A stretch of 64,000 bases of DNA from positions 1 to 64,000 of the IMG/VR virus record IMGVR_UViG_3300042922_000542. One strand, given 5' to 3'. The notes below the pieces were generated by a model that worked only from the letters and a program-made list of their open reading frames with translations, was not told where the DNA came from and did not search any database. Positions 8,301 to 23,776 of the stretch are shown here, piece by piece; the first letter of the stretch is position 1; each line of letters begins with the position of its first letter. Source of the stretch: a virus. The position numbers were made by a program, and so were the translations under genes.

Positions 8301-9107
8301 AATGGTAACATTATTTCGGTTGCATCATATTATTCGATAGATGGTATATTATGGCAAATGATGGATATTCTTATAGCACCTAGTTATGTTATGAATATGG
8401 GTGACGTTGCCGAATATTATAATGATGGCAAATGGATAAAGGTGAACGCATTACCGATAATGGGCGGAGGTTCTGATCCTGAATATCAATATTATCATTC
8501 CACAAATGGAATCGATTGGGATTATATTAATTTATTCGATATTCCTTATAATTATTTTAAATATATTTATTATGCGAATAACTTATGGGTCGCAAATATA
8601 TATATACTCAATGATAGTCAGGACGGATGGTATGGATGCACATGTTATTCAGAAGATGGTATAAATTGGGTAAAAAGTAATATGGGGGTTAATACAAGTT
8701 ATATGATACAGGATGAAATACAATGTTGTTACTATGCAAATAATATATGGGTAGCAGCTGGTATGATGGGAATATATTATTCTTATGATGGGAAAACGTG
8801 GCAACAAACTGCCAGAGATAACAACTCAATTTGGAACTTTCATATATGCTATTATATTGAAGATAGTCATACATGGATATGTAATGGTCGTTGGAACGAT
8901 GGTAATGCTACTCATGTTAATCGAGATACAGAATTGTTTTATTCGCATGATGGTAAAACTTGGCATTATGTTAACGAAATACCATTTGACAAAATAGATC
9001 GTATCGTATCATATGATGCTCATGATGGAGTTATCGTAGCAGGTGGAGTTAAAACTGTATTCTTTTCATCAGGTAATGAATTAAATTATCGACCAAAACT
9101 AGAATAA
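5361..9107 (+). CDS. tail fibre / receptor-binding protein with C-terminal multi-blade Asp-box (BNR-like) repeat region
   Basis: RBS AAAGGGAG. The N-terminal third has tail-fibre-type His motifs (IHTSEYEKTNWN, IHITPNERASWN, NNPHSVTAAQI). The NNPHxVT motif is shared with ORF 21310-23634. The C-terminal two thirds carry about 18 copies of Y-Y-S-x-D-G-x-x-W. Confidence 0.75.
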   Translation: MGKQIAKKIIQSRTYMDPDQRPIPDHDYYLTYPITTFDGVKKNDNDDSSNLTDEFELIDQKLALKQNQIPANNSGHIVTYTNEPGVIGTRPVVSSINLDPALRNNINIPTEAAVGALSDSKVNNRDFNTHVSDEIIHTSEYEKTNWNNMTPIGDFNIHTHDKDIHITPNERASWNAKANQSDLNLHINNINNPHSVTAAQINTYTKPEIDTKLLSIQTKFFNYLNIIWDQKLGIAKLVEYDAINWDPNYILGYNERLPDIGDPTGVYFALAPATNYLNNQTNDVIIYIKKPSMVWVEIGRQTLDPGDLVVRYPDTAMFVWMGGRFVELITRNSDSPDDPGGGLNEPMPPYTVKANNTNITTTPQDVKYDDILSKLISMMNPQDMADLIKPHLDIKASGDKDILGKRWIKSNFDSDANSDNVKEAIKTYYFNGIWLLYNHHKGIYYSTGGKYWMPTNVTDASIVYYYEENGLLYALSVLMSDMFDISLSLYYSTDGINWSEYKQNGGYNLMYQNGIWLSGARSYMREAQEGHAITDQYSGFGIRYSEDGINWINSNIASGILQKCYYYNNVWIAIMEYVGSSGQSLMFQVYYSRDGKFWSSGINIPSSDYEISIDVKDNVLFIFNISDTTYYSSDGIQWHNTNHDFGKCICTDDVWVASISYEGLYYSIDAGVSWNSTINTDIQDLDYNNNMWIVATNKNIYYSTDGINWTITNASPGSETYNYFDDIYYGNGTWIVRGYKKLCYSTDGVTWNDSTAIYNATSSLDMIECYGELWLANTSTGFYYSTNGINWTTIGITPSMFSTIYYENNMWLLFDNDNNVIYYSTDGILWSLCSIPEGILQYGIYHKNNMWFVIIMDDDGSDLMHLCQSTDGITWTLTNISANYINIKYVIDKWIVTTYNEIGLVSYYSLDGITWNNGPTTNFNYSSYYPANGMVVSWDNTGIKYSIDGEIFHPTNITDPIKMCWNEGGVWFATKIQISENGNIISVASYYSIDGILWQMMDILIAPSYVMNMGDVAEYYNDGKWIKVNALPIMGGGSDPEYQYYHSTNGIDWDYINLFDIPYNYFKYIYYANNLWVANIYILNDSQDGWYGCTCYSEDGINWVKSNMGVNTSYMIQDEIQCCYYANNIWVAAGMMGIYYSYDGKTWQQTARDNNSIWNFHICYYIEDSHTWICNGRWNDGNATHVNRDTELFYSHDGKTWHYVNEIPFDKIDRIVSYDAHDGVIVAGGVKTVFFSSGNELNYRPKLE
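6642..9107 (+). repeat. about 18 tandem protein-level repeats of about 45 aa (YYSxDGxxW plus N-x-x-W-hydrophobic), beta-propeller-like
   Basis: Hand count of motifs such as YYSTDGINWS, YYSRDGKFWS, YYSSDGIQWH, CYSTDGVTWN, YYSLDGITWN, FYSHDGKTWH, each followed about 20 aa later by NxxW(I/V/L)A. They resemble the SxDxGxxW Asp-box of BNR/sialidase-type propellers. Confidence 0.7.
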
Positions 9108-9120
9108 ACTAATTAATATT

Positions 9121-9148
9121 ATAGATAGATCCAAATGGATCTATCTAT
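9121..9148 (+). terminator. rho-independent terminator-like hairpin
   Basis: atagatagatcc-aaat-ggatctatctat, a 12-bp perfect stem followed by aatattttta, just after the stop at 9107. Confidence 0.7.
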
Positions 9149-9219
9149 AATATTTTTATGTTTGTATATTATAACATAACATTATATGAAGCAATATTAT
9201 ATAAGGCGGTATTATAGAT

Positions 9220-10104
9220 ATGGATCGTAAATTAATTTTAGGAATAGATTATAATAATATAATGTTTGCAAGTTATTATAGTCCAGAAAAGATTAATAGT
9301 AAATTAATTAACACAAATGCAATTAATGGATTCTTCTTTAAATTAAAAAAACTGAAGGAATATGTTAATCCTGATTATATTGTAATATGTAATGATTTAG
9401 GACGGGAAAAAACATTCAGGAGAAAGATTTACCCAGGGTATAAAGCTAATAGGCAATCAACACCTTCATCGATAGGTGAACAATTTGCATATGGTTTACA
9501 GATTGCCCAGGCATTAGGATATCCAATTATAAATGATGATAATTATGAAGCAGATGATACACTAGGTATGATATCAAGATATGCTATAGATAATAATATG
9601 GATATGATTATAGCATCATCAGATAGAGACTATTTTCAATTAGTTACTGATGAAATTAATATATTTAATATGAAACATCAGGAATTAATCGATATTGAAT
9701 GGATTCAAAATAAATACGGACTAACACCCGATCAATTGATAGATTTAAAGGCACTAATTGGTGATAAATCGGACAATATCCCAGGGGCTAGAGGGATAGG
9801 TGAATATACAGGCCTAGAATTATTACAGACATGGGGTTCGATTGAAAAAATATATAAGAATTTAGAATGCATTAAACCCGCATTACGAAATAGACTTGAA
9901 CTTGATAAGAAGAATGTCGATATGAGTAAATTTTTAGGCACTATTATTACAGACTATAGTTTGATCGATATAAATATGAATAAGATTGAGCGTCAGCCAC
10001 AAGATACTAATCAACTACGAGATGTTATAAACTATTTAGAACTATATCAATTACATGATATTATGAAATATACATTGTTACACGATAAACTGATAACAGA
10101 ATAA
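9220..10104 (+). CDS. 5'-3' exonuclease / flap endonuclease (Pol I N-terminal domain family, PIN plus H3TH)
   Basis: Motifs FRRKIYPGYKANR, YEADDTLG and the H3TH signature GDKSDNIPGARGIGEYTGLELL. Confidence 0.9.
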   Translation: MDRKLILGIDYNNIMFASYYSPEKINSKLINTNAINGFFFKLKKLKEYVNPDYIVICNDLGREKTFRRKIYPGYKANRQSTPSSIGEQFAYGLQIAQALGYPIINDDNYEADDTLGMISRYAIDNNMDMIIASSDRDYFQLVTDEINIFNMKHQELIDIEWIQNKYGLTPDQLIDLKALIGDKSDNIPGARGIGEYTGLELLQTWGSIEKIYKNLECIKPALRNRLELDKKNVDMSKFLGTIITDYSLIDINMNKIERQPQDTNQLRDVINYLELYQLHDIMKYTLLHDKLITE

Positions 10105-10190
10105 TGTAATTTAGGTACCAATTCAAACATATCTGTTAATACATAAAATTTATAAATGTTAAAAAATATAAAATTGAGGAGATAGATAAT

Positions 10191-11180
10191 ATGGCTATAA
10201 TCGGATATACTGAAAACACTGACTTGACTTCTTTCAATGAATCAACTCTTTCAAAGAGTGAAACATTTAAATTATTTCAAGCCATCGGCGACCCAATAGA
10301 AAAAGCAAAAAACCTCATCAAAAATGCACGGGTTTTAACAAATGAAGATATTGAAACAGCGTATATTCAAGTTAAACAATATTCAAATTCATTAAGTAGA
10401 TCTGCTGTTAAAGCATACGATACCGGTTCCGTAGTTCTTTTATACACCGAGTTACCGTCACTTAGAATGAGTCAAGCATTTCCATTTATTACATTTAGGC
10501 ATAAAGATAAATATATCACATATATATTTATCGATAAATATATATCTAAAAGAAAAGATGGTGGATTGGATTTAAGCCCTGCGGTGTTACATGATTTATT
10601 AATAGGCGGAGTTATCGCCAATAAATTAAAAACTAATTATGATTCATTAGCAAGTAATCAATACCTACAAAAAATGTTAATGGAAATTTACACAAAATTC
10701 GTTACCCGTATTATTAATAAAGAATATGGAATCGGTGCAGATAAACAAATATCTGATTCAGCGCAATATTTTATAAATAGATTTTTCCTGGAAAAGATAT
10801 TTGAAACTAATGATGTGCCAGAAAACATTGAACGTCTTAGTATAAATAAATTAAAATATTTAGATGAAATGCTCATAAATGAAATAAAAATTAAATATGA
10901 AACTGCAAACCCATCATCATTTAGTGAATTATTGGAATTAGTTAAATCATTAAGTGTGAGGATGAATTCATTAACATTAAAATTATTTACAGATAAATGG
11001 ATTAATTATTATTACGCACCTGCAACATTAGCAATTGACAACATGGAATATTTAATATTCATGATAATTGCATTACTGCATGGAAATAATACGATTATAT
11101 CAATTAAAGCATCTGAAATAGTTAAGGAAACAAAAGGTATTAAAATGTTACAAGAAGAAATGCTGAAATTAATAAATTAA
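10191..11180 (+). CDS. hypothetical protein (329 aa)
   Basis: RBS GAGGAG 8 nt upstream. Long ORF with no recognised motif. Confidence 0.75.
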   Translation: MAIIGYTENTDLTSFNESTLSKSETFKLFQAIGDPIEKAKNLIKNARVLTNEDIETAYIQVKQYSNSLSRSAVKAYDTGSVVLLYTELPSLRMSQAFPFITFRHKDKYITYIFIDKYISKRKDGGLDLSPAVLHDLLIGGVIANKLKTNYDSLASNQYLQKMLMEIYTKFVTRIINKEYGIGADKQISDSAQYFINRFFLEKIFETNDVPENIERLSINKLKYLDEMLINEIKIKYETANPSSFSELLELVKSLSVRMNSLTLKLFTDKWINYYYAPATLAIDNMEYLIFMIIALLHGNNTIISIKASEIVKETKGIKMLQEEMLKLIN

Positions 11181-11243
11181 ATTTATATACTTATAGGAAC
11201 TATTAGATTAATTCAATAATAATATAAAAGGAGTGTTCAAACT

Positions 11244-11546
11244 ATGGCAGCAATTATAAAAAATGTAGTAATCGATGAATTTGAAATACCTGAGGAGTTA
11301 GCCAAAGAACTTAGCTCATTATTAACAGAATCTTCTATTAAGAAAGCATTGCTTGTGGAATTAGTTGAAGTGCCGGCTAAATATGATATCATTGAAAATG
11401 CAGTAATTATACTTGAAGATAAAATAACTGCATTAAAGAATATGATCACTAGAGAATATGTTCCAAATCATTACAGATCTTCTGAATATTCTTGGAACTA
11501 TGATGGTTATGCCACTGCAGGTCGCATTGTTCAAATTATGAAATAA
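11244..11546 (+). CDS. hypothetical protein (100 aa)
   Basis: RBS AAAGGAG upstream. The opposite-strand ORF 11237-11449 has no RBS. Confidence 0.7.
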   Translation: MAAIIKNVVIDEFEIPEELAKELSSLLTESSIKKALLVELVEVPAKYDIIENAVIILEDKITALKNMITREYVPNHYRSSEYSWNYDGYATAGRIVQIMK

Positions 11547-11561
11547 CATATACTAAAAATA

Positions 11562-11585
11562 ATGGGGGACAATCAAGTCCCCCAT
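11562..11585. terminator. bidirectional terminator hairpin between convergent genes
   Basis: atggggga-caatcaag-tcccccat with T-rich tracts on both sides. Confidence 0.75.
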
Positions 11586-11607
11586 TATTATTTATTTTTT
11601 TATTTTA

Positions 11608-11901
11608 TTAGCAATTGCATCCACGACTAGTACAAGAGCAGCCATCATTATCTTCAACTAATATCATTCCGCAGTTATTGACAAACGAAATATACAAATC
11701 CGATTTTTTATCAGATGTAGACGAAACGTAGCCCTTACTTAATTCTTGTCTTAATACACTTAGACGAGTTGTTATATCAACCCATTCATTCGTGAATGAT
11801 TCATGCACGCCAACAAATTGTTCAACCGCATTAGCACGCCCAATCAATTCTAGTGGCAATACATTTGTATCAATTAATTCATATTGAACTTTCTTAACCA
11901 T
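11608..11901 (-). CDS. small protein with C-terminal Cys motif (CSCTSRGCNC); candidate radical-SAM substrate
   Basis: RBS CAGGAG placed immediately after the stop of the upstream Cys-rich gene. It is the last gene of the operon before the terminator. Four of its five Cys lie in the last 10 residues. Confidence 0.7.
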   Translation of the reverse strand: MVKKVQYELIDTNVLPLELIGRANAVEQFVGVHESFTNEWVDITTRLSVLRQELSKGYVSSTSDKKSDLYISFVNNCGMILVEDNDGCSCTSRGCNC

Positions 11902-11915
11902 TATATTTCTCCTGA

Positions 11916-13181
11916 TTAATAATTTATTTTTCTGAATGATCTCTGTTGATCTTCTCGATTCATAGGTTGAGGATATCCAATTGTAGTCGGTTCTGTATGA
12001 TATGATTTCTCTGAAATATCTGCAGATGTATTAGATTGTAAATACGTTGTACAATGTCCTACGCATGTACTAATGCATTTATCAGTACAATTATTAAAAC
12101 AATCTCTATTACAACTTGAGTCACACCACCAACCACATAAATTGGCACAATTAGAACAAGTACCCTGACATTTAACTGAGCATAAACCAATACACATACC
12201 CACACATGAGTAGCAAAGATCACTACAACCACCACATGAGTCAGTGCAATTATCATAACAATGATTCACACATTTATTTACGCATGTTTGAGTACAATAA
12301 ATATTACATGCTTGGCCACATTGAACCGAACATTGACTTGAACAAGGTCCACAATTAAATCCACAATTGTTAGCGCATGTTCTACATAATGATGAACATG
12401 CATTTGAACATAGTGCTGTACATGATTTACCAACACAATTAACACTACATGTATTTACACATGCACCCTTACTTGCACCGCATGATGAACGACAAGCTTC
12501 TAGATGACAACTCGTGTTACAATCCTTTTGACATAGACCGGTACACGAACCACCGCAATTTCCACATCCCGTTGATCCAGGCGGTTTAGCATCCTCTTGG
12601 GATGATGCATGACCATCACATGTTGTACATATACCAGTGTTTGCATTACAATCACTTGCACAATTTGTACAACCGCCACCACCAGAACTAGTAGTTGCAC
12701 ATTCTTCTCTACACGATGTTCCACATCCTGTGCATGCACCACTACAACCACTACAACCATCTCCAGTACTAGTGCCGCTACATCCTCCACCACAGGTACC
12801 ACCGCATCCACCTTCACATCCATTTCCACAACTAGAGCTACACATAGAACAGTCACCTGAACAACTTCCAGGGCAACTAGTATCTCCAGGATCTGGTGCA
12901 GCAGATGACGATCCTTTACAAGTACCAGTACAACCACTACACCCTCCACTGCATCCATTAGAACATGATCCGGACCCAGCATTACAAGTATCTCTACACA
13001 TACCTTTACATGTTGTACCACAACTATCAGAACTACAACCTGCACCGCATCTAGATTGACAAGATGTTCCACAACTACCACATCCAGTACCAATACTCTT
13101 TGTTGCTGTGGTACTACTAGAACTACTAGCAGCATCTTTTGCTTGTTTTATAGCACCTATTATTCCTGACAATAAACTCAT
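11916..13181 (-). CDS. hyper-cysteine-rich protein (421 aa, 78 Cys by hand count, mostly Cx3C spacing)
   Basis: RBS AAGGTGA. A Cys-free 33-aa N-terminus is followed by three Cys/Gly/Ser/Thr blocks separated by short Pro/Asp linkers, then a Cys-free 44-aa tail. The frame is chosen by RBS and operon context among several open frames. Confidence 0.8.
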   Translation of the reverse strand: MSLLSGIIGAIKQAKDAASSSSSTTATKSIGTGCGSCGTSCQSRCGAGCSSDSCGTTCKGMCRDTCNAGSGSCSNGCSGGCSGCTGTCKGSSSAAPDPGDTSCPGSCSGDCSMCSSSCGNGCEGGCGGTCGGGCSGTSTGDGCSGCSGACTGCGTSCREECATTSSGGGGCTNCASDCNANTGICTTCDGHASSQEDAKPPGSTGCGNCGGSCTGLCQKDCNTSCHLEACRSSCGASKGACVNTCSVNCVGKSCTALCSNACSSLCRTCANNCGFNCGPCSSQCSVQCGQACNIYCTQTCVNKCVNHCYDNCTDSCGGCSDLCYSCVGMCIGLCSVKCQGTCSNCANLCGWWCDSSCNRDCFNNCTDKCISTCVGHCTTYLQSNTSADISEKSYHTEPTTIGYPQPMNREDQQRSFRKINY

Positions 13182-13214
13182 TTATCAATCACCTTCTTTA
13201 CACAATGATCTGTA

Positions 13215-14852
13215 TCAAACACGTATACCCGTATTTGCATTACAATCTATTTTACATGTAGCTGTACAAGCACTAGTACAACCAAAACACGTTCCAGTAC
13301 ATGTTAAATTACATGATCCAGTACAACCATCACAAGCTGTACACCCATTTGAACATCCAGTGTCACAGTTACCACAATTATTACTGCAGGTTACAGTACA
13401 ATTATCGTAGCAACTATTTTTACAAGTACTGAAACATGACAATGTACATACACCCTCACATACACCAGCACAATCACCTGTACAATCTGCAACACAACCC
13501 TCTTTACACGATTGACCCTTTCCAGATTTATAACCACCATTATGTTCATTATCATTACTAATGCATCCACCAAAACAACTAGTTGAACAATATGTATTAC
13601 AAGTTGTAAAACATAATGCTGAGCATACTGAATCCCAACATGTCGTTTTTTTATTAGGATAATATTGACATGAGAATGAACATCCACTGCATGTATACGT
13701 TGATGATATTACTGTATTTTGGATAACTGCACTTGAGGCTGTCTGTCCACAATTATTACTACATCCGCTAGGGTTACCTGTAGATTTAATAGAAACTGTA
13801 TCAGCTCCTGCATTCAAACAAGATTTACCACCAATATCACTACATTTGGTTTTACATCCAGAATAACATTGTGTCGTACATCCTGTACATATATTACCAC
13901 AATCTGAATGACATGCATTACCGCATCTGCTCCAACATGTGGATGCACAACCTTCGGAACATTGATTATCACATGTTAGATAACATAAACCTGTACATGC
14001 TACATTACACAATCCTTTAGATCCTGTTGAAATTTGTCTTGATGGATATTCTGATCCTCTATTAGGGTTTCTAGGATTAGCTCCAAATCTAGATGCTGAA
14101 CTAATGCCACCTGTCACTTGATCAACTACTGTTTCATTTCGTTGATCGTCCTGAGTAATTATATGACGATGAACAATCGGTGAAACATATGGGTTTATCG
14201 GATGATGATCAATAACACCAGGACTTGCTCCATAATCATCATAGAAGTTAGTCTCATCAGGACCACTATGACCTGGTAATATTTCTTCACCATCATATTC
14301 TCCAGATGGATATTCTACTGGAACTGTTACGGTTTTACCATTATTTGCAATAGGGTATAAACCATATCCTGTATACATACCATTCGTAACTCCATTATTA
14401 GGGTCATATTTCTGAAAAGATTCAGTAACGGGCACATTTAAAATATCATTTTCAGCAGCTTCTATTTTTGTTGATATATCTTCAGGATCTCTAAACACTA
14501 AACCCGCAACCTCATCTCTGCCATAGAATAAATCTATGTCATGGATCTTAGATAAACCAACTAAATAGTTTTGTATTTCATCAACATCAATTCTAGCACT
14601 AGATGAATTAATATCTCCAACAGGATTATCTCCTTGCGCAGGATATTTGATATTTCTTGTAGGTTCTATGGATCCGGTAGATGGAGTATTAATGGTATAT
14701 GTTTTATCTGTGACTTCACTAGTCCTATCAGCTCCGACTGCAGGTGTAGTTAACGGATCCCACCATTTAAATGTTCCACGACGTTTAATCTCAGCATTTA
14801 ATTTATCCTTAATTGCATCAAATTCTGTTTTTGAATATAATTTATCATTCAC
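13215..14852 (-). CDS. two-part protein: Cys-free N-terminal domain (about 280 aa) plus C-terminal Cx3C lattice (52 Cys)
   Basis: No ATG near the 5' end. The track starts at GTG 14870. I prefer GTG 14852 because GAGGTG lies 6 nt upstream. The first Cys is residue 288 of the track ORF (nt 14009). The protein ends in ...CKIDCNANTGIRV. Confidence 0.75.
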   Translation of the reverse strand: MNDKLYSKTEFDAIKDKLNAEIKRRGTFKWWDPLTTPAVGADRTSEVTDKTYTINTPSTGSIEPTRNIKYPAQGDNPVGDINSSSARIDVDEIQNYLVGLSKIHDIDLFYGRDEVAGLVFRDPEDISTKIEAAENDILNVPVTESFQKYDPNNGVTNGMYTGYGLYPIANNGKTVTVPVEYPSGEYDGEEILPGHSGPDETNFYDDYGASPGVIDHHPINPYVSPIVHRHIITQDDQRNETVVDQVTGGISSASRFGANPRNPNRGSEYPSRQISTGSKGLCNVACTGLCYLTCDNQCSEGCASTCWSRCGNACHSDCGNICTGCTTQCYSGCKTKCSDIGGKSCLNAGADTVSIKSTGNPSGCSNNCGQTASSAVIQNTVISSTYTCSGCSFSCQYYPNKKTTCWDSVCSALCFTTCNTYCSTSCFGGCISNDNEHNGGYKSGKGQSCKEGCVADCTGDCAGVCEGVCTLSCFSTCKNSCYDNCTVTCSNNCGNCDTGCSNGCTACDGCTGSCNLTCTGTCFGCTSACTATCKIDCNANTGIRV

Positions 14853-14915
14853 ACTTATCACCTCAATCACATTTATATTTGCATTTATTTAATTTTAAAG
14901 AGTCTGCAAATTCAA

Positions 14916-16727
14916 TTATTGGTTTTCCAATACGGTAATTGTAGAACGAGCCACTATCATTTTTAATAATTTTAACTCTTCCTCATTAATAACCATCAAT
15001 GCCCATTCGTCGGGTAATTGTAATTTTCTTACTCCCAAATTATAATGTGGTTTCTTTATAGCTAACAGGTTCCAGTAATATACATTGGCTAAGTGTTCGG
15101 CAAACATTTGTAAACATATGAATTGAGTTCTCTTATTTGCAGTCCCATATGTTTGATGGCATAACCCACTACACCAAGAGCAAGAAGATCCAATTGGACA
15201 ATCATAACAAATATCATTTGATTGTGAACGCCTTGTTACACTATCCATCATCGACAATATTTCGGATCCTTCTTCTCTACCAACCATACCAGTATCAATA
15301 TGACCTATACATTGCTCTTTGCATTTCGTTCCAAGTGATGATGGCATATATCTAATACATGGATAAAATTTACCCTTGTAGTCTAGTGCCAACATTGATC
15401 CTAATCCTCCACACCAATTTTGATCCGAAGTGTGTTTAAGCCTAGTCTCAGGTTTATCATCGAATATAGCAATATATAGATGCTCTAAATTATTTTCCAG
15501 CAAGTAGTTCGCTAGTTTCTTTAATTGTTCATATTCTAGTGTAGCAGTTTCTTGTGTCCAAACATCTTCAAACACGCAGTTTAAATTGATAGATTCCATA
15601 TCCTCATTGATGAAATTAATAACTGAATCATATAAATATTTCATATTTTCTGGAGCCAATGTCATCTTTGAATTTCTTTCGGTAGTATGATATTTATTAA
15701 AATGATTTAATGCAAGAATATCGATATCATACGAGCCTTCACCATTAGGCTGGATTCTACATGAGTCTTGTAATTCTTTATTACCATCTATTGATATATT
15801 AAATGAAACATGTTTAGCATATTTTTTAAAGAAATCTTGCACGTCTCTATCAAAATATAACATCCCATTGGTACATATAGAAATTCTATGCATTGCAAAC
15901 CATGGATGGTTTAATTCATAGCATCTTTCTAAAAAATATTCATAAATCTTTTTGGTAAGATTAATTTCTAACAATGGGTCCCCACCAATAAACTCAATGA
16001 TTATTGCAGGTGAATTGTGTTTATTAATATAACTATATTCATCATTTAAAAGTTTATCGATAAATGCTTTAGCTGTTGGAAATTTCATTCTTCCACATGT
16101 TTTATTTATCTGATAACAATATGTGCAGGATAAATTACAATCCTCAGTTGTTTGGAATGTAAAGTTGTGTACATATATTGATGTATCCTTATTAGTAGGA
16201 TCTACTGTATCTTGAGTAAACAATTCAGGGTAAACTTTTTGAATGGCATCACTATAACTTTCAACATTAAATCTAAAAAATTGATTTGGCATTATATTAA
16301 ATACTTCATCATCCTTTATTTTATCATCAATATAATTTAAACAATTTTCATCATCAGATAATATTATTACATCAAATCCAATCTCTTGATTTTTGAAATC
16401 AATATGTTTAACAATTACCTCAGATATATTATCAATATTATATGAGGAAACTCCAGATGATTCGATTATATCATTTAAGAATACTGCAACTATTTCACAG
16501 AATCCATAACGTACCTCGTCCAAGATACTAGTAAGTTTTTCATGTAATTCCGGGATTTTATCTAGATCCTTATTATGGTCATACATATAATTTATTCTAA
16601 ATGATATCGCATCAGCTTCATATCGTAACCTGGTTGTTTTATGATACCCGAATGTCTGCATTTCAAATATATCGAATTGCTGATTGTATAATTTAATTTT
16701 TTTATATAATGCATTTGTCTCTTTCAT
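14916..16727 (-). CDS. radical SAM / SPASM-domain enzyme with about 190-aa N-terminal extension (603 aa)
   Basis: RBS AGGAGG. CNLSCTYC (CxxxCxxC) at nt 16116-16139. C-terminal GKFYPC ... CYDCPIGSSCSWCSGLC auxiliary-cluster pattern typical of SPASM proteins. Confidence 0.85.
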   Translation of the reverse strand: MKETNALYKKIKLYNQQFDIFEMQTFGYHKTTRLRYEADAISFRINYMYDHNKDLDKIPELHEKLTSILDEVRYGFCEIVAVFLNDIIESSGVSSYNIDNISEVIVKHIDFKNQEIGFDVIILSDDENCLNYIDDKIKDDEVFNIMPNQFFRFNVESYSDAIQKVYPELFTQDTVDPTNKDTSIYVHNFTFQTTEDCNLSCTYCYQINKTCGRMKFPTAKAFIDKLLNDEYSYINKHNSPAIIIEFIGGDPLLEINLTKKIYEYFLERCYELNHPWFAMHRISICTNGMLYFDRDVQDFFKKYAKHVSFNISIDGNKELQDSCRIQPNGEGSYDIDILALNHFNKYHTTERNSKMTLAPENMKYLYDSVINFINEDMESINLNCVFEDVWTQETATLEYEQLKKLANYLLENNLEHLYIAIFDDKPETRLKHTSDQNWCGGLGSMLALDYKGKFYPCIRYMPSSLGTKCKEQCIGHIDTGMVGREEGSEILSMMDSVTRRSQSNDICYDCPIGSSCSWCSGLCHQTYGTANKRTQFICLQMFAEHLANVYYWNLLAIKKPHYNLGVRKLQLPDEWALMVINEEELKLLKMIVARSTITVLENQ

Positions 16728-16797
16728 TATAATACCTCCTGTTATATATTAACTTTATTTAGCTTAATTCTTAGTAATATTAAAATCATATAAAGAT

Positions 16798-16821
16798 AAT
16801 GGATGGGCAATCCCATCCATT
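16798..16821 (-). terminator. hairpin (terminator or attenuator) inside the radical-SAM cluster
   Basis: aatggatggg-caat-cccatccatt, between the stop at 16826 and the start at 16727. Confidence 0.55.
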
Positions 16822-16825
16822 ATCA

Positions 16826-17662
16826 CTATCTATTATTTGATATGTATTCTTGATATATCATGGATAGTTCTTGATCAACTTTATTCCGCTCAGTTAATTT
16901 TGTATCATCATATTTTTGCTCGGATAACAATTGACCATTACAGTCCTTCGTTGAAATTACATAATGTGAATTGACATTAACGGTATTAATATTCTCAATA
17001 GTGATTTCATTATCGATAAAATAATTATCATAGATTAATTGTTTCATAATACTCATATAATGATCTCTAATAATATTGAAATCATCACTGACAAATCCAA
17101 ATTCAATTCGTTTAAATCCAATAGAAACTAAATTATTGATACTTTCTTTAAGATATCCAATATTAGATTTATTTAAAGTACAATGTGCAATTAGGTTAAT
17201 CCCACTCTTTATGAATTTGCCTATATTGTCTATTATATAATCATATGATCCTTTCCCGTTTTTAAGTATACGATTAATATTGTGCGATAATTTATTACCA
17301 TCTATTGAAATACATAATAAAATATTATATTTTTTAATGGTATTAATAATTTCATCTGAATACATCATACCGTTAGTTGAAGTTACAAATTTAAATTTAT
17401 ATTCAGAATAATGATCAATAATATATTTACATATTTGATTTAGTCGATCTATAAATAAAAATGGTTCACCGCCTAATAATTCAACAGTAATCGACCTACC
17501 CGTAATATGCAACATACTTTCATCGAATATCCGAATTATATCATCTATGGTACTATCTGATTCAATATCACTATCAAGCATATTATTATATACATAACAA
17601 TATTTACATCTCATATTGCAGAGCTTAGTAATATACATATTTATATGTCGACATTCAGACAT
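16826..17662 (-). CDS. radical SAM enzyme, short form without SPASM tail (278 aa)
   Basis: CNMRCKYC at nt 17597-17620 and a GGEP motif (LLGGEPF). The start overlaps the upstream stop as TAATG, which implies translational coupling. Confidence 0.85.
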   Translation of the reverse strand: MSECRHINMYITKLCNMRCKYCYVYNNMLDSDIESDSTIDDIIRIFDESMLHITGRSITVELLGGEPFLFIDRLNQICKYIIDHYSEYKFKFVTSTNGMMYSDEIINTIKKYNILLCISIDGNKLSHNINRILKNGKGSYDYIIDNIGKFIKSGINLIAHCTLNKSNIGYLKESINNLVSIGFKRIEFGFVSDDFNIIRDHYMSIMKQLIYDNYFIDNEITIENINTVNVNSHYVISTKDCNGQLLSEQKYDDTKLTERNKVDQELSMIYQEYISNNR

Positions 17663-18783
17663 TAATCATCATCCTTCAAATTAAATTTAATACGAATATT
17701 GTCATATCCAATTTTATTAATAAACATTTCAGATGCATCATAAAAAAGTTTTATTGCTTTACATACACCATCTATGGGTTCACATATATTTTTCTTACCA
17801 TGTTCCATTATTGCTGCAAAACATTGACCATAGCATACGCCATATAATTCACAATTTCTACATTTTGGAGATATATCATGTGAAAAGTTTTTATATATAT
17901 TTGCAATATTATTGGTTTCATCAATATCAGTAAATATGGAACCAAGTTTAGTATGTTCAAAGCGGTTATTGAAAAAACGTTGACAAGGATATATGTCACC
18001 ATTGGGTGCTAATGCAATTGTAGATGAACCAGCTGAACAGAAGTAGGTTCTACCGTGGGCTTTACATCTATATGGTAATAGTAAGCCAGTATCAAGAAAT
18101 GGAGTTTCCGAGTAAAATTTATCAACTAGAAATTCTACATATTCAATATAAAAATTCTTTAATCTCTCCAATTGCACATCATTCCAATCGCAATCTCGGA
18201 CAATACTCAAATTAATACGCCTGAATCCATCTTTGATGTAATCTTTAATACCATCTAGGACATAATCAATATTATCAGGTGATATCATAAATTTAAATAT
18301 TTTAGAGCTGATTGGTCTGTTATTAGCTTCACAATATAGTGTAGCACCTTTTATACAGTCATCATAGCTACCTTTACCATTTGGATATACCCGACATCTA
18401 TCATGGCTGCTTCTCCCACCATCTAGGGACATACTAATCCCTATTTCATTATTCTTGAGATATTCAACCTTCTCTTTATTTAATAATGTCAAATTACTTG
18501 TAGTCATAATTGCAATATTTACATCTGGTCGCATTTTTTTTACTTCATTGATATTATCAACTATTTTACAGAATTTTTCCCATTCCATTATAGCCTCTCC
18601 ACCGAATAAATCAATATGAAGAGATTTTATATCATTTTTAACGATAATATTATTAAGAAATACGGGCAAATATTCAATAACATCATCCGATATTGTTAAC
18701 CCGTTTGTTTTATTAACATAGCAATATTTACAACGCAAATTGCATTTCTCAGTTACAATAATAATGATTGTACTAATTTTCAT
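17662..18783 (-). CDS. radical SAM / SPASM-domain enzyme (373 aa)
   Basis: CNLRCKYC at nt 18721-18744. The C-terminus reads CSAGSSTIALAPNGDIYPC ... CRNCELYGVCYGQC, the canonical Cx2Cx5Cx3C SPASM pattern. Confidence 0.9.
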   Translation of the reverse strand: MKISTIIIIVTEKCNLRCKYCYVNKTNGLTISDDVIEYLPVFLNNIIVKNDIKSLHIDLFGGEAIMEWEKFCKIVDNINEVKKMRPDVNIAIMTTSNLTLLNKEKVEYLKNNEIGISMSLDGGRSSHDRCRVYPNGKGSYDDCIKGATLYCEANNRPISSKIFKFMISPDNIDYVLDGIKDYIKDGFRRINLSIVRDCDWNDVQLERLKNFYIEYVEFLVDKFYSETPFLDTGLLLPYRCKAHGRTYFCSAGSSTIALAPNGDIYPCQRFFNNRFEHTKLGSIFTDIDETNNIANIYKNFSHDISPKCRNCELYGVCYGQCFAAIMEHGKKNICEPIDGVCKAIKLFYDASEMFINKIGYDNIRIKFNLKDDD

Positions 18784-18794
18784 TTTTTATACCT

Positions 18795-19184
18795 CTAATT
18801 ATCACCTATTACCAAACCACATTGATCACAATCACATGCACATCTATCACAATTGCAAGAACATCTATCGCAATCACAATCACAATTATCGCAATTACAT
18901 TGACATGTATTATTGTATATTGTCGTAGCAGCTATACTGGCATTATTAAAAACTGTAGCAAGTATATATTTGCCTTGTTCAAAATTTATCAATGAACTAA
19001 GATCTGCCTTGGGATATACCGCTGAATGACCATTTGCAGCAACTAAATTATTTTTAATTGATGTAAACAAAGTGCTAGTTATTAAATTACCTTTCACGGC
19101 TCTTTCTGTATTTGCAGGTTGACCAAGTCGTATTCGAGTTTGATCAACCGATGCAGCAACAACATTTGCATCATCCGCTAACAT
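18795..19184 (-). CDS. protein with C-terminal alternating Cys tail CQCNCDNCDCDCDRCSCNCDRCACDCDQC; candidate radical-SAM substrate
   Basis: The track ORF begins at GTG 19217. I prefer ATG 19184 (AAAGG 7 nt upstream). There are 13 Cys within 27 residues near the C-terminus. The stop lies 9 nt before the RBS of the next radical-SAM gene. Confidence 0.75.
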   Translation of the reverse strand: MLADDANVVAASVDQTRIRLGQPANTERAVKGNLITSTLFTSIKNNLVAANGHSAVYPKADLSSLINFEQGKYILATVFNNASIAATTIYNNTCQCNCDNCDCDCDRCSCNCDRCACDCDQCGLVIGDN

Positions 19185-19194
19185 TTTCTGACCT

Positions 19195-19518
19195 TTAACT
19201 ATTGCCAATGTTATCACCCACTTTTACAATAAAATCAATAGACTCATATAAAATATCACTGATTGAGAAGTGATATATATTCTTTACAATATTACTTATA
19301 GATTTAACGATGGTACCATTTACCAATACCTGAACTGATTTTACTGGTTTATCCCTAAAATATTGATTTAAAACTGTACCTGTTGTTGGAACAACATCAT
19401 TTATGATACGTAATTGAGTTAATTCACTCCCAACATTCATAAAAAAATTTATCCCCGCAGTTTTATCAATTATAACATCTTCATCAATATATTCAATTTT
19501 TATTTTTACACCTTCCAT
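19195..19518 (-). CDS. hypothetical small protein (107 aa) within the radical-SAM cluster
   Basis: RBS AGGAGGG. No Cys motif. Function unknown. Confidence 0.7.
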   Translation of the reverse strand: MEGVKIKIEYIDEDVIIDKTAGINFFMNVGSELTQLRIINDVVPTTGTVLNQYFRDKPVKSVQVLVNGTIVKSISNIVKNIYHFSISDILYESIDFIVKVGDNIGNS

Positions 19519-19549: not shown

Positions 19550-19951
19550 TTATTCATAATTAAAATGGAGTTCGGAATTAGATAAATATATTCGATCTAT
19601 TATTATATCATCCATAATATTTATACCATATGAGATACTCTTTACGCCTAATATTTCATCACATATTTCATCTCCATTAAACATTTGAACATTGATTACT
19701 TTTCGATCCATCAATGCTTGACGAATTATATCAAATTTTTCATGAAAGTCGTTAACTGTGACATTTCTAATGATTAATGCATTTGATATCATTTTGCTTA
19801 AACTATTTGCCACTGTGAGACTATCATCTCGGTATCGTACGGCCGATACTACCGGGGATTGAGGTAGGGATGTTGGATCTATATTAATATTAGGCACCAC
19901 ATCTAATGTCATCGTCACCATTGGTTCGATTATTATTTTTACACGTGTCAT
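19550..19951 (-). CDS. hypothetical small protein (about 133 aa) within the radical-SAM cluster
   Basis: The track start is 19972. Met8 at 19951 has AAAGGGG about 10 nt upstream. It overlaps the 3' end of the upstream radical-SAM gene by about 62 nt. Confidence 0.6.
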   Translation of the reverse strand: MTRVKIIIEPMVTMTLDVVPNINIDPTSLPQSPVVSAVRYRDDSLTVANSLSKMISNALIIRNVTVNDFHEKFDIIRQALMDRKVINVQMFNGDEICDEILGVKSISYGINIMDDIIIDRIYLSNSELHFNYE

Positions 19952-21224
19952 TGCATGAACACCCCTTTTCATTTATCATACGAGAAACTTTTTCTGTTAT
20001 TAATAATTCATGTAATTCTAATAAATGTTGTAGCGTTATTATTTGACCTTCCGTAAAATTATCAGTTAGAAGTCTACCCATTTCTTGCAAAACTGTAATT
20101 GAGACTTCGTGATCTCTATGAATTTTACCAAATAGTCGTTCATATACATAAATCGATAATTCCATTTCAACCTCTAATAATTTACAATACTTAGGAAAAC
20201 CATATGCGATATTTCCATTTTCTATATAATTAATAGCCATACAGCTCTTGCAGTTATAATTCTTACATTCAGAACATGCCTTGTATCCAGTCATATATTT
20301 TTTATACATCTCTTCATATGGTGCACATTTTAATGTATTTATACCATTAAATACATCACCAATTATAGTATCTGGGTCATTCATGAATGCATGGCATGGA
20401 TATATATAACCATCTGGAGCTACAGTGCAAAATGATACACCCGCACCGCATGTTTTATCGGCATGTCGCTCTTTATATACCATTGATGAAAATTGTTTAT
20501 AATTCCCTCCACTATTTTCACAATCCTCAATGATTGCATTGGCAATATGGGTATATTGCTCTCTAAATATAACATAATCATTTTCATCCCAATTCTCTTC
20601 ATGAAGAGGCATAAACCATATCTTATCAAATCTTAAGATATTTTTAAAGAAGATGTATGACTCATGTGCATATGGTAATGTTGCTTTGGTTATAACACTA
20701 TGCACTGATAATTTATTAGATGGAATGTCTAATTTATCAAATAATGCTCTAAGTTTTTTTATCGTCTCTATTATATTATGAGATGAACCATTACCCGCAT
20801 GATCAATTCTTTGCAGATCATTAATCCTAGGAATTGAATCAAATGATAATTGAATTGAAAAACTTTCAGGATTATTTACCCACCAATTGGTTAGAAATTG
20901 TTCGTATTCATTATTGTATAATACACCATTTGTTATCAATTCACTATTATATTTCAAACCATGTTTTTTACATTGATCCATAGCATAATTGAATATGTGG
21001 TTCATAGTATTTATATTGAGTGTAGGCTCCCCTCCAAAATATGACACACTAATACTTGTTTTATTATTAACTAAAGCATCATGGATAAGTAAATCAATTG
21101 TTTTTTCACCAATCTCATTACTCATAAATTTACCCTTTGATGAATTATTTTTTTCAAAACAATATTTACAATTAAGATTACATGTGTCTGTTAATAGTAT
21201 CGATGCACTCGTAAATGATGACAT
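19890..21224 (-). CDS. radical SAM / SPASM-like enzyme (444 aa)
   Basis: RBS AGGAGG. CNLNCKYC at nt 21159-21182. CGAGVSFCTVAPDGYIYPC ... CSECKNYNCKSC, plus a C-terminal helical extension ending in GCSCNDTC. Confidence 0.85.
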   Translation of the reverse strand: MSSFTSASILLTDTCNLNCKYCFEKNNSSKGKFMSNEIGEKTIDLLIHDALVNNKTSISVSYFGGEPTLNINTMNHIFNYAMDQCKKHGLKYNSELITNGVLYNNEYEQFLTNWWVNNPESFSIQLSFDSIPRINDLQRIDHAGNGSSHNIIETIKKLRALFDKLDIPSNKLSVHSVITKATLPYAHESYIFFKNILRFDKIWFMPLHEENWDENDYVIFREQYTHIANAIIEDCENSGGNYKQFSSMVYKERHADKTCGAGVSFCTVAPDGYIYPCHAFMNDPDTIIGDVFNGINTLKCAPYEEMYKKYMTGYKACSECKNYNCKSCMAINYIENGNIAYGFPKYCKLLEVEMELSIYVYERLFGKIHRDHEVSITVLQEMGRLLTDNFTEGQIITLQHLLELHELLITEKVSRMINEKGCSCNDTCKNNNRTNGDDDIRCGA

Positions 21225-21286: not shown

Positions 21287-21319
21287 AAATAGTTAATCCG
21301 ATTGTCGGATTAACTATTT
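21287..21319 (-). terminator. terminator hairpin overlapping the tail-fibre stop codon
   Basis: aaatagttaatccg-attgt-cggattaactattt, a 14-bp perfect stem. Confidence 0.65.
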
Positions 21320-23634
21320 AAAATTAATATTTTTACTCTTTGAATATCTTCCGTATCTTTATTCTCTAATGCCTTACCTATTATAGATCCTGGAATACTT
21401 GATACTGAACTTTTTCCAACGCCTTTGATAGACGATGTTGTTATTAAATCTCCAGCTTTAACCTTGCCGGTAATATATGCAGATACTCTTCCTGTTAATC
21501 CTATAGGTATATTTCTTTCTAAGTTTTCCTCAGTGGTATATCCTTCTTCCAAACCTAATAAATATCCATATGTATCAGATACTACACCAACAACCAATGT
21601 CGAATATTCACCAGTGCTTTTTCGATAATTACCAGTTTCTGGATTTAATTCTATAATATCGCCAGGTTTAAAATCTTCAGACATATCATCCTTTTTAAAT
21701 AACTCGGCAACGTCACCCCATACTGCATTCTGAACTAAAGAGCCTGTTATGGTACCGGTAACTGTTAAATTACCAGTGATCGTTCCGCCAGTGAGTGGTA
21801 AATATGGATGGGTGTGTCCATTATCAGATTTATTATTCCATGCTGCTATTTGAGCATCTGTTACAAATCTATTAGTAGTATTTTGAGTTATAATCGATGC
21901 TGGGTGGCTCGCAGGATGTTGATATGAATATGGAGCGAGTTTAGATGCCAAAGCTTGTAGTTGTTCCACCGTGGATCTACTACTAATAGAATCGATTATA
22001 GTTGCAAATGATACATCAGTTGGTGCTGCAGCAGCACTAGTCATATTTCCTTTAATAGAAAATGCAGGTATATCTGCTAATTTTATATTCGTTACAGCTT
22101 TATCTCGTATTTTTGTAGTTAATATAGATAAATCTGCAATATTATAATCAGTTACAGCATTCATTTGAATTTTATGATTATTTACACAACCCTCACCCAA
22201 TTCATCGGAAGTTATAGTAAATGCAGCAATCTTTATACCAGTAACAGCCCTATCTGCAATAGCTGGCGTTTTAACGGACCCTTGCAATATATGATAATCG
22301 CGTATTGCATTACCAGCTATCTTTGAAGCAATGATCGTCCCATCTAATAAGTGATTATACATTACATTATTATCAGCTATATGTTCGGCAAGAATTGCAC
22401 CTGCTTTAATATCAACACTGTCCGCAACGGCTTTGTATGCTAAGTTTTGTAATCCTGTAACGTGTATTTCATCAACTACCGTACTGACATCACCATTTAT
22501 CATGTATGATATAGAACCATTATTTGAACCAGATCCTATCTCTATAGATTGTATAAATCTGCCATCAGCTTCAGCTTTACTGTATACATCTGTAGCCTGT
22601 GGTAGTGCTGCCACATTTATTGATAGACCGTTAGGTGTTTCAGAAAAATAAGTTGCATCATATTTTGATATTGTGAAATCCTGTATATCCCACCAATAAT
22701 TATCACCATCATGTTTACATGCAGCAATTGCACTATAATTAGAATTTTCTTTATTTTTAATCAGATATATATGTCTTTGTAATAATGGCGATGCCATCGG
22801 TAAATCTGAAACTTTATTTACAATATCAATAAATTCAACGTAGTCAGTTAAATCAGGTCCAACTATGGTATCAACATATGATGTCACGAAGTCAACTACT
22901 GCTTTAGATGATGGATATTTAACATCATCATAGTTTGTAGTATGTGATATAGTCACTGATTTGTTAGCAATATTTTCTTTAGCTGCAAATAATGGTCCAT
23001 GTGAAAATGGATTTGTCAAATGTGTTGTATAATCATTTAATAAATTAACCATTCTGGCATCTAGTAAATCAATACTATCGTTTAATTCAGTTTGTACATT
23101 AGATAATGCATTACGTATATCACTATGTGCTGTATTGCTAGTATCATGAATACCAATAATATTATTAATTGTATTTGAAACACTACCATCCGAATCTAAT
23201 TGATCTATTGTAACGTTGTGAGGATTATTAAAATTTGCAAGATGTGCGGTTAATGATGATAGGTCTATATTAAAATTATAATTTTCTAATATCGACATTA
23301 CTGCATTTCTCTGATTATATGATAATGGCTTCTCCAAATCAGATGTATTGTTAACCCGACCGAGTCCTATATCTTCAGATGTAATATTAATATCGCCGTA
23401 CATCCCATTTACAGATGTTACTGGGAATGTAATATATCCAATACCACCTTCTTTTATTTCTTCACGTATATCATCTAGTATTTGACGTAATGTTATTTCG
23501 TTCGCATCCTGTTGGTCATATATAGCATCTAATACACTTCTAGGCCAAATTATATCGGCCATACTAGTACTCGGATTATTCTCATCATCAAATACAATTT
23601 GATCGCGGATAACTTTATTCCTAATATTATTCAT
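21310..23634 (-). CDS. tail fibre protein with probable C-terminal intramolecular-chaperone / autoproteolytic domain
   Basis: I prefer Met9 (AGGAGG 9 nt upstream). It has NNPHNVTIDQL, reiterated A(V/I)TxxKIAxxxI repeats and GGTITGNLTVTGTITG. The C-terminal segment (VVGVVSD...GLTGRVSAYITGKVKAGDLITTS) resembles the Peptidase_G2/IMC type as I remember it. Confidence 0.75.
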   Translation of the reverse strand: MNNIRNKVIRDQIVFDDENNPSTSMADIIWPRSVLDAIYDQQDANEITLRQILDDIREEIKEGGIGYITFPVTSVNGMYGDINITSEDIGLGRVNNTSDLEKPLSYNQRNAVMSILENYNFNIDLSSLTAHLANFNNPHNVTIDQLDSDGSVSNTINNIIGIHDTSNTAHSDIRNALSNVQTELNDSIDLLDARMVNLLNDYTTHLTNPFSHGPLFAAKENIANKSVTISHTTNYDDVKYPSSKAVVDFVTSYVDTIVGPDLTDYVEFIDIVNKVSDLPMASPLLQRHIYLIKNKENSNYSAIAACKHDGDNYWWDIQDFTISKYDATYFSETPNGLSINVAALPQATDVYSKAEADGRFIQSIEIGSGSNNGSISYMINGDVSTVVDEIHVTGLQNLAYKAVADSVDIKAGAILAEHIADNNVMYNHLLDGTIIASKIAGNAIRDYHILQGSVKTPAIADRAVTGIKIAAFTITSDELGEGCVNNHKIQMNAVTDYNIADLSILTTKIRDKAVTNIKLADIPAFSIKGNMTSAAAAPTDVSFATIIDSISSRSTVEQLQALASKLAPYSYQHPASHPASIITQNTTNRFVTDAQIAAWNNKSDNGHTHPYLPLTGGTITGNLTVTGTITGSLVQNAVWGDVAELFKKDDMSEDFKPGDIIELNPETGNYRKSTGEYSTLVVGVVSDTYGYLLGLEEGYTTEENLERNIPIGLTGRVSAYITGKVKAGDLITTSSIKGVGKSSVSSIPGSIIGKALENKDTEDIQRVKILILNS

Positions 23635-23776
23635 TGTTATCATCCTCCTATATGTCATAAAATATAATTATTACTCTAATTTATATTAAACAAATGGTTT
23701 GAGTGCTGATGAAGAAAAGCAAAAAAATGAATTATTTAGATTATATATTATTCTATAAATATACCATAAAATCATA

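Follow-up and report, generated by a model that had tools for sequence, protein, structure and literature searches.

A heptad-repeat cysteine protein encoded with three radical-SAM enzymes in a jumbo phage: a candidate thioether-stapled, fibre-like structural protein

The DNA analyzed here is a stretch of 64,000 nucleotides from a virus (IMG/VR virus record IMGVR_UViG_3300042922_000542, positions 1 to 64,000), hereafter called the window, to which all coordinates refer. The open reading frame (ORF) at 18795-19184, our target, encodes a protein of 129 amino acids (aa) with a Cys-rich C-terminus, as a first-pass annotation of this DNA had recognized. It belongs to a six-gene module, entirely on the minus strand, that also encodes three radical S-adenosylmethionine (radical-SAM) enzymes. 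Our analyses revealed that the Cys-rich part is an array of heptads with three Cys and two Asn or Asp (Asx) residues each, shared by a large family of mostly viral proteins, and we put at about one half the probability that the target is a small fibre-like structural protein whose Cys/Asx rod would be stapled with thioethers by the three radical-SAM enzymes. The window, with ~30% GC, is rich in AT and comes from a jumbo phage. Its flanks encode tail-fibre, virion-structural, thymidylate-synthase and dihydrofolate-reductase (DHFR) genes, and the six-gene module lies between tail-fibre genes. A JGI protein identical to the target, P0001, sits on a 246-kb contig. The target and its parts are the following.

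18795-19184, minus strand: target ORF, 129 aa, with a three-helix N-domain, a Cys/Asx heptad array and a 7-residue tail
18906-19184, minus strand: N-domain, residues 1-93, without Cys; predicted helices at residues 3-19, 37-51 and 76-92
18819-18905, minus strand: heptad array, residues 94-122, (C-x-C-[N/D]-C-D-x)x4 and a closing C, 13 Cys in all
18795-18818, minus strand: C-terminal tail GLVIGDN and stop codon, the stop overlapping the ribosome-binding site (RBS) of the next gene

The target starts with an ATG at 19184 and stops at 18797-18795, and the encoded protein ends NNTCQCNCDNCDCDCDRCSCNCDRCACDCDQCGLVIGDN. Residues 1-93 contain no Cys, in agreement with the earlier description of a Cys-free stretch of about 90 residues. 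The same annotation had described the tail as 13 Cys in 27 residues in strict alternation. The count of 13 is right, while the span is 29 residues (C94-C122), and the tail does not alternate strictly but repeats a seven-residue unit, C-x-C-x-C-x-x, in four copies (CQCNCDN, CDCDCDR, CSCNCDR and CACDCDQ) followed by a closing Cys. Because the unit has seven residues, successive Cys triads in an extended strand would fall on opposite faces, and not all thiols on one face of a beta-strand as had been suggested. At the DNA level, the array is a 21-bp repeat of 3.9 copies with 77% matches. A degenerate two-heptad DNA pattern matches the window three times, in overlapping positions that all lie within 18825-18905; since shuffled sequence gives 0.00 expected matches (100 shuffles), the array is not a product of chance.

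The N-domain is predicted by AlphaFold2 (37 sequences) to adopt a confident three-helix fold, with a predicted local distance difference test (pLDDT) score of ~84-93. It has no match in the PDB by Foldseek or sequence search, and a BFVD search returned weak matches only, to uncultured-phage proteins. The target has no Pfam domain and ends seven residues after the array, without a C-terminal autocleaving domain.

An initial search with the target found only two relatives, which have the same architecture. A profile built from these three proteins brought in 40 proteins in a word-indexed profile search, and an exhaustive HMMER search gave 179 cluster representatives at E<=1e-3. One criterion for the family was a run of two or more C-x-C-[ND]-C-[ND]-x units, of which the target has four. 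The first-pass annotation had named homologues without the Cys tail as the finding that would speak against it; the collected relatives do not bear this out, since 144 of the 171 carry at least two strict heptads. Across the family, the heptad consensus is C-[TS]-C-[ND]-C-[ND]-[YHR], with Asn or Asp at position 4 in 93% and at position 6 in 92% of the units. A core of Cys and Asp, as described earlier, is not supported family-wide: Asn accounts for most of the residues between the cysteines (67-74%), and the target copy is unusually Asp-rich. Searched against the window, a profile of 81 array-free N-regions matches the target alone (E=3e-20); family membership therefore does not rest on low-complexity similarity. 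The members have no match in Pfam, NCBIfam or PHROG. Neither the 13-kb region (megablast) nor the target (tblastn) matched any of 50,697 phage records, and in the literature library searched there was neither a description of the heptad family nor a tie between such heptads and radical-SAM enzymes.

Some family members occur in cellular assemblies, namely in a Thermoplasmata archaeon metagenome-assembled genome (MAG; loci L097 and L166), in a Chloroflexota MAG (L105) and in Clostridium rectalis (L161). Radical-SAM genes lie ~0.4-0.6 kb from the heptad gene in L097, L161 and L166, and 3.3 kb from it in L105. Given that two archaeal MAG contigs bear heptad genes, the system may extend to archaeal viruses.

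The other genes of the module, whose order is rSAM-A, small protein 1, small protein 2, heptad protein, rSAM-B and rSAM-C, are listed below with the hairpin that closes it.

19890-21224, minus strand: rSAM-A, 444 aa, first gene of the module, with a SPASM-like Cys motif; Pfam Radical_SAM, SPASM sub-threshold at 16.8 bits
19550-19972, minus strand: small protein 1, 140 aa as listed, overlapping the 3' end of rSAM-A; position conserved
19195-19518, minus strand: small protein 2, 107 aa; position conserved, predicted all-beta
17662-18783, minus strand: rSAM-B, 373 aa, radical-SAM/SPASM; Pfam Radical_SAM 41.2 bits, SPASM 25.7 bits (cut-off 21.5)
16826-17662, minus strand: rSAM-C, 278 aa, without SPASM, overlapping rSAM-B by 1 nt
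16795-16824, minus strand: terminator-like hairpin, 13 pairs and a T-run, closing the six-gene module

The SPASM enzyme adjoining the target and the coupling of two radical-SAM genes, both pointed out earlier, were found as described, the second enzyme lacking SPASM. The stop codon, which had been placed 9 nt before the RBS of rSAM-B, in fact lies 11 nt before its ATG, and an AGAGG-like RBS overlaps it. rSAM-B carries the core motif CxxxCxxC (CNLRCKYC at residue 14) and matches phrog_1802. The ORF of small protein 1 overlaps the 3' end of the rSAM-A gene by 83 nt (19890-19972), and its counterpart in the related phage L093 does so by 47 nt. The 444-aa enzyme itself has a Cys-containing C-terminal tail (...GCSCNDTCKNN...IRCGA).

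Conservation of the module extends to distant relatives. The same gene order, with orthologous enzymes A, B and C, was found in L093, a 232-kb phage (35-68% identity gene by gene), as well as in L001/L002 and L004, and the module is shortened or rearranged in L003 and L005. Three radical-SAM orthogroups are common to the window, L001, L004 and L093, the orthologues of rSAM-C being L1_250, L4_300 and L93_254. IMG/VR loci were gathered with the two-heptad DNA pattern, which yielded 83 stretches. Of 80 IMG/VR loci, 53 have a radical-SAM homologue within 3 kb of the array; among the 18 fully flanked ones, which hold at least 3 kb of sequence on both sides of the array, the count is 15. Most matches of the same pattern in a collection of cellular genomes belong to an unrelated Cys-Asp family of Clostridia, which we kept as a negative control; a radical-SAM gene was found in none of its 17 fully flanked loci. 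The control proteins (L096-L172, for example L098, L102 and L110) are small and very acidic, with (C-D)n runs like DCDCDCDDCDCDCDD, of the DCDCDCDD type, followed by two CPxC zinc-ribbon motifs.

On the conserved gene order, the proximity in 15 of 18 loci and the type of the enzymes, the Cys/Asp tail of the target is a very probable substrate of the adjacent radical-SAM enzymes. The link proposed in the first-pass annotation is thereby supported. One of the syntenic loci has a peculiarity of its own. In L001, the late module with the radical-SAM genes and the heptad gene (7205-12650) is interrupted by in-frame stops of the standard code; the deposited protein P0002 reads at least those inside the heptad gene as Gln, and no such interruption affects the genes of the first 7 kb. 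As judged from the sequence, this phage has recoded stop codons, with the recoding visible only in the late module.

The best NCBIfam match of all three enzymes is the PapB ranthipeptide maturase family (NF047865), with 183.3, 183.3 and 119.2 bits for rSAM-A, B and C, and none of them reaches its cut-off of 340 bits. The PapB-type chemistry proposed earlier is in keeping with these best matches, which fall far short of family membership. The next-best matches, to the CXXX-repeat, SCIFF and QhpD families, which like PapB count among the thioether-forming peptide maturases, are all far below cut-off. By these profile scores, the module enzymes are peptide-maturase-like and fall outside every curated family.

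Sub-threshold matches were also obtained to anaerobic sulfatase maturase and cyclophane-forming enzymes, and position 7 of the heptads is Tyr, His or Phe in 77% of the family's units. Both observations could point to a different radical-SAM modification of the array, namely conversion of Cys to formylglycine, epimerization, or cyclophane C-C links to the position-7 aromatic residue. We consider this highly improbable. Position 7 in the four heptads of the target is N, R, R and Q, so the aromatic partner is not universal, and cyclophane chemistry at this position was rejected as a general explanation; moreover, the invariant features of the heptad are the Cys and Asn/Asp residues, and the top-scoring enzyme matches are thioether formers.

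Small protein 1 has no family match in Pfam, PHROG or NCBIfam and is 35% identical to a 145-aa protein at the matching position in L093. Small protein 2 is 56% identical to the 107-aa protein of L093 and has no homologues in a word-indexed search; its single-sequence AlphaFold model is an all-beta sandwich of 8 strands (pLDDT 72) with weak C2-like matches only. The idea that these partners are stand-alone RiPP recognition element (RRE) domains was rejected, the 107-aa model being neither RRE-like nor informative.

This gene content bears on the classical scheme of a peptide that is made by the ribosome and modified after translation (RiPP), the framing adopted in the first-pass annotation. In that scheme, the N-part would be a leader, the radical-SAM enzymes would cross-link the Cys/Asp core in a ranthipeptide-like manner, and a small bioactive peptide would be released at lysis. 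The homology of the enzymes to PapB-like, SCIFF-like and CXXX-type maturases, the tight coupling of a precursor-like gene to them, and the order of a Cys-free N-part and a C-terminal Cys core are what such a system would display. However, the 93-residue N-part is a confidently folded three-helix domain and not a typical leader, and the module, both in the window and in L093, holds only the three radical-SAM enzymes, two family-less small proteins and the heptad protein, with no leader peptidase, exporter or other transporter, or recognizable RRE. The contexts in which the arrays of the relatives are found weigh further against this scheme.

Among the 63 complete array-bearing IMG/VR ORFs, eight continue with a full domain starting SD(E/I/R)RLK, and 15 more carry a short version of ~20 residues. 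The full domain is Pfam Peptidase_S74 (25.7-34.4 bits; cut-off 22), and its first residue is the Ser that adjoins the last heptad. Peptidase_S74, known as the "chaperone of endosialidase", is an autocleaving domain that serves trimeric tail fibres and spikes as an intramolecular chaperone for their folding. Arrays followed by Peptidase_S74 or by its first ~20 residues (SDERLK...) were seen in loci such as L017, L018, L039, L074, L087, L029 and L041, the last two having three or four tandem paralogues of small proteins made of an array and an SDERLK-type end. Arrays also occur inside the large proteins P0105, P0127 and P0143 (610-767 aa).

In at least nine other relatives (364-500 aa), the array runs into a Hint/intein-like domain (P0041-P0048, P0052, P0072), and P0043 passes Pfam Intein_splicing with 40.7 bits (cut-off 35.8). 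Over the N-domain and array, P0043 and the Hint-less P0002 share 53% identity. The Cys1 of Hint directly follows "...ADDKF", the counterpart of the free C-termini "...DDAMF" and "...NDGNF" in the Hint-less P0002 and P0007. These Hint-type domains carry a degenerate LAGLIDADG-like insert and end in D (...GD), not HN, and the next residue is G, A, S or K, without a nucleophile. The domain therefore has the appearance of an N-terminal self-cleaving appendage and not of a splicing intein, and, from its sequence features, the fusion suggests either self-cleavage or a thioester-mediated attachment of the array C-terminus. Many Hint-less relatives end with an acidic stretch and then Trp or Phe. The tail GLVIGDN of the target (18798-18818) and the end of P0003 (...SSIGDDW) resemble the last Hint strand in the fused relatives (...GEIIIGDGYV); the target tail may be the remnant of a lost Hint domain, or the resemblance may be a coincidence.

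A fibre-type context is also found upstream of the module, where the adjacent gene is a tail-fibre gene.

21310-23658, minus strand: upstream tail-fibre gene, 782 aa; matches to tail-fibre PHROGs, autoproteolytic chaperone-like C-terminus, weak Peptidase_G2

The C-terminal 180 aa of this protein are 42-50% identical to L093 proteins, two of which have Peptidase_G2 matches, and the heptad module follows such a tail-fibre gene both in the window and in L093.

The relatives from cultured Campylobacter phages connect the array with virions. CP220 gp140 (CPT_0180; L091 6933-8537 = NC_027997.1 160932-162536) is a protein of 534 aa with seven CTCDCNY heptads mid-protein, and its orthologue in IBB_35, gene 3-9 (L092 1501-3105), likewise has seven heptads inside 534 aa. 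These proteins share with the target the heptad and the same type of preceding helix (profile matches to P0105, P0127 and P0143); unlike the target, they are 534 aa long, have the array mid-protein and give no full-length match to the three-helix N-domain. CP220 gp140 has no PDB match in Foldseek or sequence searches. The 21-bp repeat of CP220 and CPt10, the only intragenic repeat reported there, was noted by Timms et al. 2010 (PMC2853527) as a DNA repeat only and, in the literature examined, never tied to radical-SAM genes; it encodes the seven CTCDCNY heptads. The SPASM-type radical-SAM protein gp136 of CP220, closest to group A, is encoded 2.2 kb downstream of gp140. The product of IBB_35 gene 3-9 is among the 38 virion proteins identified by tandem mass spectrometry with electrospray ionization (ESI-MS/MS) of purified virions, with 2.6% coverage (PMC3322345, Table S2); its listed mass is 60,318 Da and its computed mass 60,317 Da. 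Not all radical-SAM genes of CP220 belong to the heptad system, since its central radical-SAM cluster adjoins glycosyl- and amidino-transferases. The ORFs upstream of the CP220 radical-SAM gene gp023 are not Cys-heptad proteins.

Since arrays of relatives precede Peptidase_S74 or Hint domains and sit in proteins of 500-770 aa, and an array-bearing protein, that of IBB_35 gene 3-9, was found in virions, the target unit resembles a structural protein that is modified more than a precursor from which a peptide is released. The leader-and-core framing of the first-pass annotation is probably wrong, and we regard a classical RiPP as improbable here.

A second, separate module lies downstream of the six genes, with a terminator-like hairpin of its own (11558-11589); the related phage L093 lacks this module.

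11608-16727, minus strand: separate CXXX module, comprising a radical-SAM enzyme, two CXXX-repeat Cys-rich proteins and a 97-aa ORF

Its CXXX-type radical-SAM enzyme (14916-16727, 603 aa) scores 344.4 bits against TIGR04115, just under the cut-off of 350. The two Cys-rich proteins (13215-14870, 551 aa, and 11916-13181, 421 aa) contain long C-x-x-x-C runs, and the 97-aa ORF ends ...CSCTSRGCNC. The target, unlike these two neighbour proteins, contains no CXXX run. An N-terminal motif (...EIKRRG) apparently common to the target and the 551-aa protein was rejected as not significant (E=0.66).

The reading we favor, at roughly even odds, is that of a fibre-like rod stapled by thioethers. Two features of the heptad are universal, its three Cys and the Asn/Asp found at positions 4 and 6, and thioether formers are the best homologues of the enzymes. 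The action of the enzymes on the array, the Cys-Asx thioether product and the virion location of the target itself are inferred. The array would form a rod at the C-terminus of phage proteins of the fibre type that are probably oligomeric, and the target would be made as a stand-alone 129-aa protein from a late six-gene module that directly follows a tail-fibre gene. Prior to assembly or in its course, hydrogen would be abstracted from Asn/Asp residues by enzymes A and B, which have auxiliary clusters of the SPASM type, and by enzyme C, which has none, and these residues would then be joined to neighbouring Cys thiols. PapB requires its acceptor on the C-terminal side of the Cys (PMC12373016). 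Links from C1 to N/D4 and from C3 to N/D6, with C-x-x-N/D spacing, would satisfy this orientation rule, and C5 would be left for a third link, metal binding or inter-chain bonding. That the three enzymes might serve three Cys registers is an attractive speculation. The Asn-rich consensus of the family means that a chemistry like the Cys-Asn beta-thioether of NxxC peptides would be needed.

Another possibility would be a rod held by metals or disulfides, in which the CxCxC triads would bind Zn, Fe, Cu or iron-sulfur clusters in a metallothionein- or gp37-like manner, or form extracellular disulfides. The extreme Cys density and the CxC spacing are typical of metal-thiolate proteins, an array without a confident stand-alone fold is to be expected if the fold depends on metal or on oligomerization, and the thioether chemistry is, for its part, deduced from sequence. 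On the other hand, thiolate clusters do not require a near-invariant Asn/Asp at positions 4 and 6 or a strict heptad register, the conserved link to three radical-SAM enzymes of the peptide-maturase type would have no explanation (no such enzyme accompanies the control Cys-Asp family), and the target has no metallothionein match in Pfam or NCBIfam and no other Pfam match. We therefore judge unlikely such a rod, beside which the radical-SAM enzymes would act elsewhere or need the heptad protein only as a cluster donor. A mixture, with some Cys stapled and others metal-binding, is possible.

Several observations weigh against the stapled structural rod that we favor. AlphaFold2 confidence for the target array is below 50, with no confident structure. 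The reaction of the enzymes is undefined by homology, because their scores are well below every curated family cut-off, and no RRE is recognizable in the enzymes or the small partners by Pfam and NCBIfam searches or in models. By Pfam, the target itself has neither the Peptidase_S74 chaperone nor the Hint domain of its relatives, and the sole virion evidence comes from a large, distantly related array-bearing protein at 2.6% sequence coverage. Finally, many of the 11 radical-SAM genes of CP220 sit with sugar-modifying genes and not with Cys proteins. The wider proposal, that phages use dedicated radical-SAM sets to install Cys-Asn/Asp thioether ladders in the heptad rods of their own fibre and virion proteins, is more tentative, and we rate its chances as below even.

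What the enzymes probably act on is a repeat module that is widespread in fibre-type proteins of phages and unannotated in Pfam, NCBIfam and PHROG. The class of chemistry is known; what is new is the heptad array of phage fibre-type proteins as a substrate type, the three-enzyme module, and the Hint and chaperone variants. If the stapling reading is correct, it would describe a new way to harden virion proteins, comparable in spirit to capsid chainmail, and would extend RiPP-type chemistry to a structural protein, each Cys register perhaps having an enzyme of its own. It would tie the 21-bp repeat protein of the Campylobacter phages to at least the adjacent SPASM-type gene among their 11-12 radical-SAM genes, and would provide a first function for part of the radical-SAM genes that are unexplained in Campylobacter Firehammervirus phages and in many jumbo phages from the gut and the environment. 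With their 13 to more than 40 cysteines, the arrays would also serve peptide engineering as a compact scaffold that is genetically encoded. The cultured Campylobacter phages CP220, CPt10, CP21 and IBB_35 make the stapling idea directly testable.

Among known systems, the uncharacterized CXXX-repeat system (TIGR04115/TIGR04119) resembles ours in combining Cys repeat arrays with a dedicated radical-SAM enzyme, and a near-threshold copy lies directly downstream of the target module. It differs in its spacing (C-x-x-x versus C-x-C-x-C-x-x) and in forming a separate transcription-like unit. PDB searches found no solved structure for Cys/Asx heptads. On the structural side, the Peptidase_S74 fibres and spikes are comparable to the relatives in which the array stands directly before the chaperone, the target itself being without one. 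The tip of the long tail fibre of T4, gp37, binds iron through HxH sites, and it is like the heptad array in having short ligand motifs repeated along the fibre axis.

The closest parallel to the target system is PapB with its substrate freyrasin, in which repeated Cys...Asp motifs (six CX3D motifs) are encoded beside a radical-SAM/SPASM enzyme. The target array is core-like in that its acceptors lie C-terminal to Cys, but it is preceded by a folded 93-aa domain instead of a short leader, and no RRE was found. Unlike PapB, the module enzymes score 119-183 bits against the 340 required; there are three of them and not one, the heptad has three Cys per unit with a spacing of its own, and Asn is dominant family-wide. 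The module also differs from that of PapB in lacking an RRE, a protease and an exporter, and its context is one of phage structural genes. A precedent for linkage to Asn, which is the residue most often present at positions 4 and 6 of the heptad, is found in the streptococcal NxxC ranthipeptide, in which the radical-SAM enzyme NxxcB joins a Cys sulfur to an Asn beta-carbon. There, however, the motif runs N-x-x-C and not C-x-x-N, and the product is a single ring in a short, quorum-regulated peptide of bacterial origin.

Small secreted peptides and one enzyme subunit are the settings in which radical-SAM thioether chemistry is known. This subunit is QhpC, the small subunit of quinohemoprotein amine dehydrogenase, in which the radical-SAM/SPASM enzyme QhpD staples Cys to Asp/Glu. 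The module enzymes match the QhpD family (TIGR03906) with 85-115 bits and do not approach its cut-off of 453 bits, and QhpC, with a few irregular links and no repeat array, belongs to an enzyme and not to a virion. It is nevertheless like the target, as we read it, in that the stapled protein stays in place as a structural subunit.

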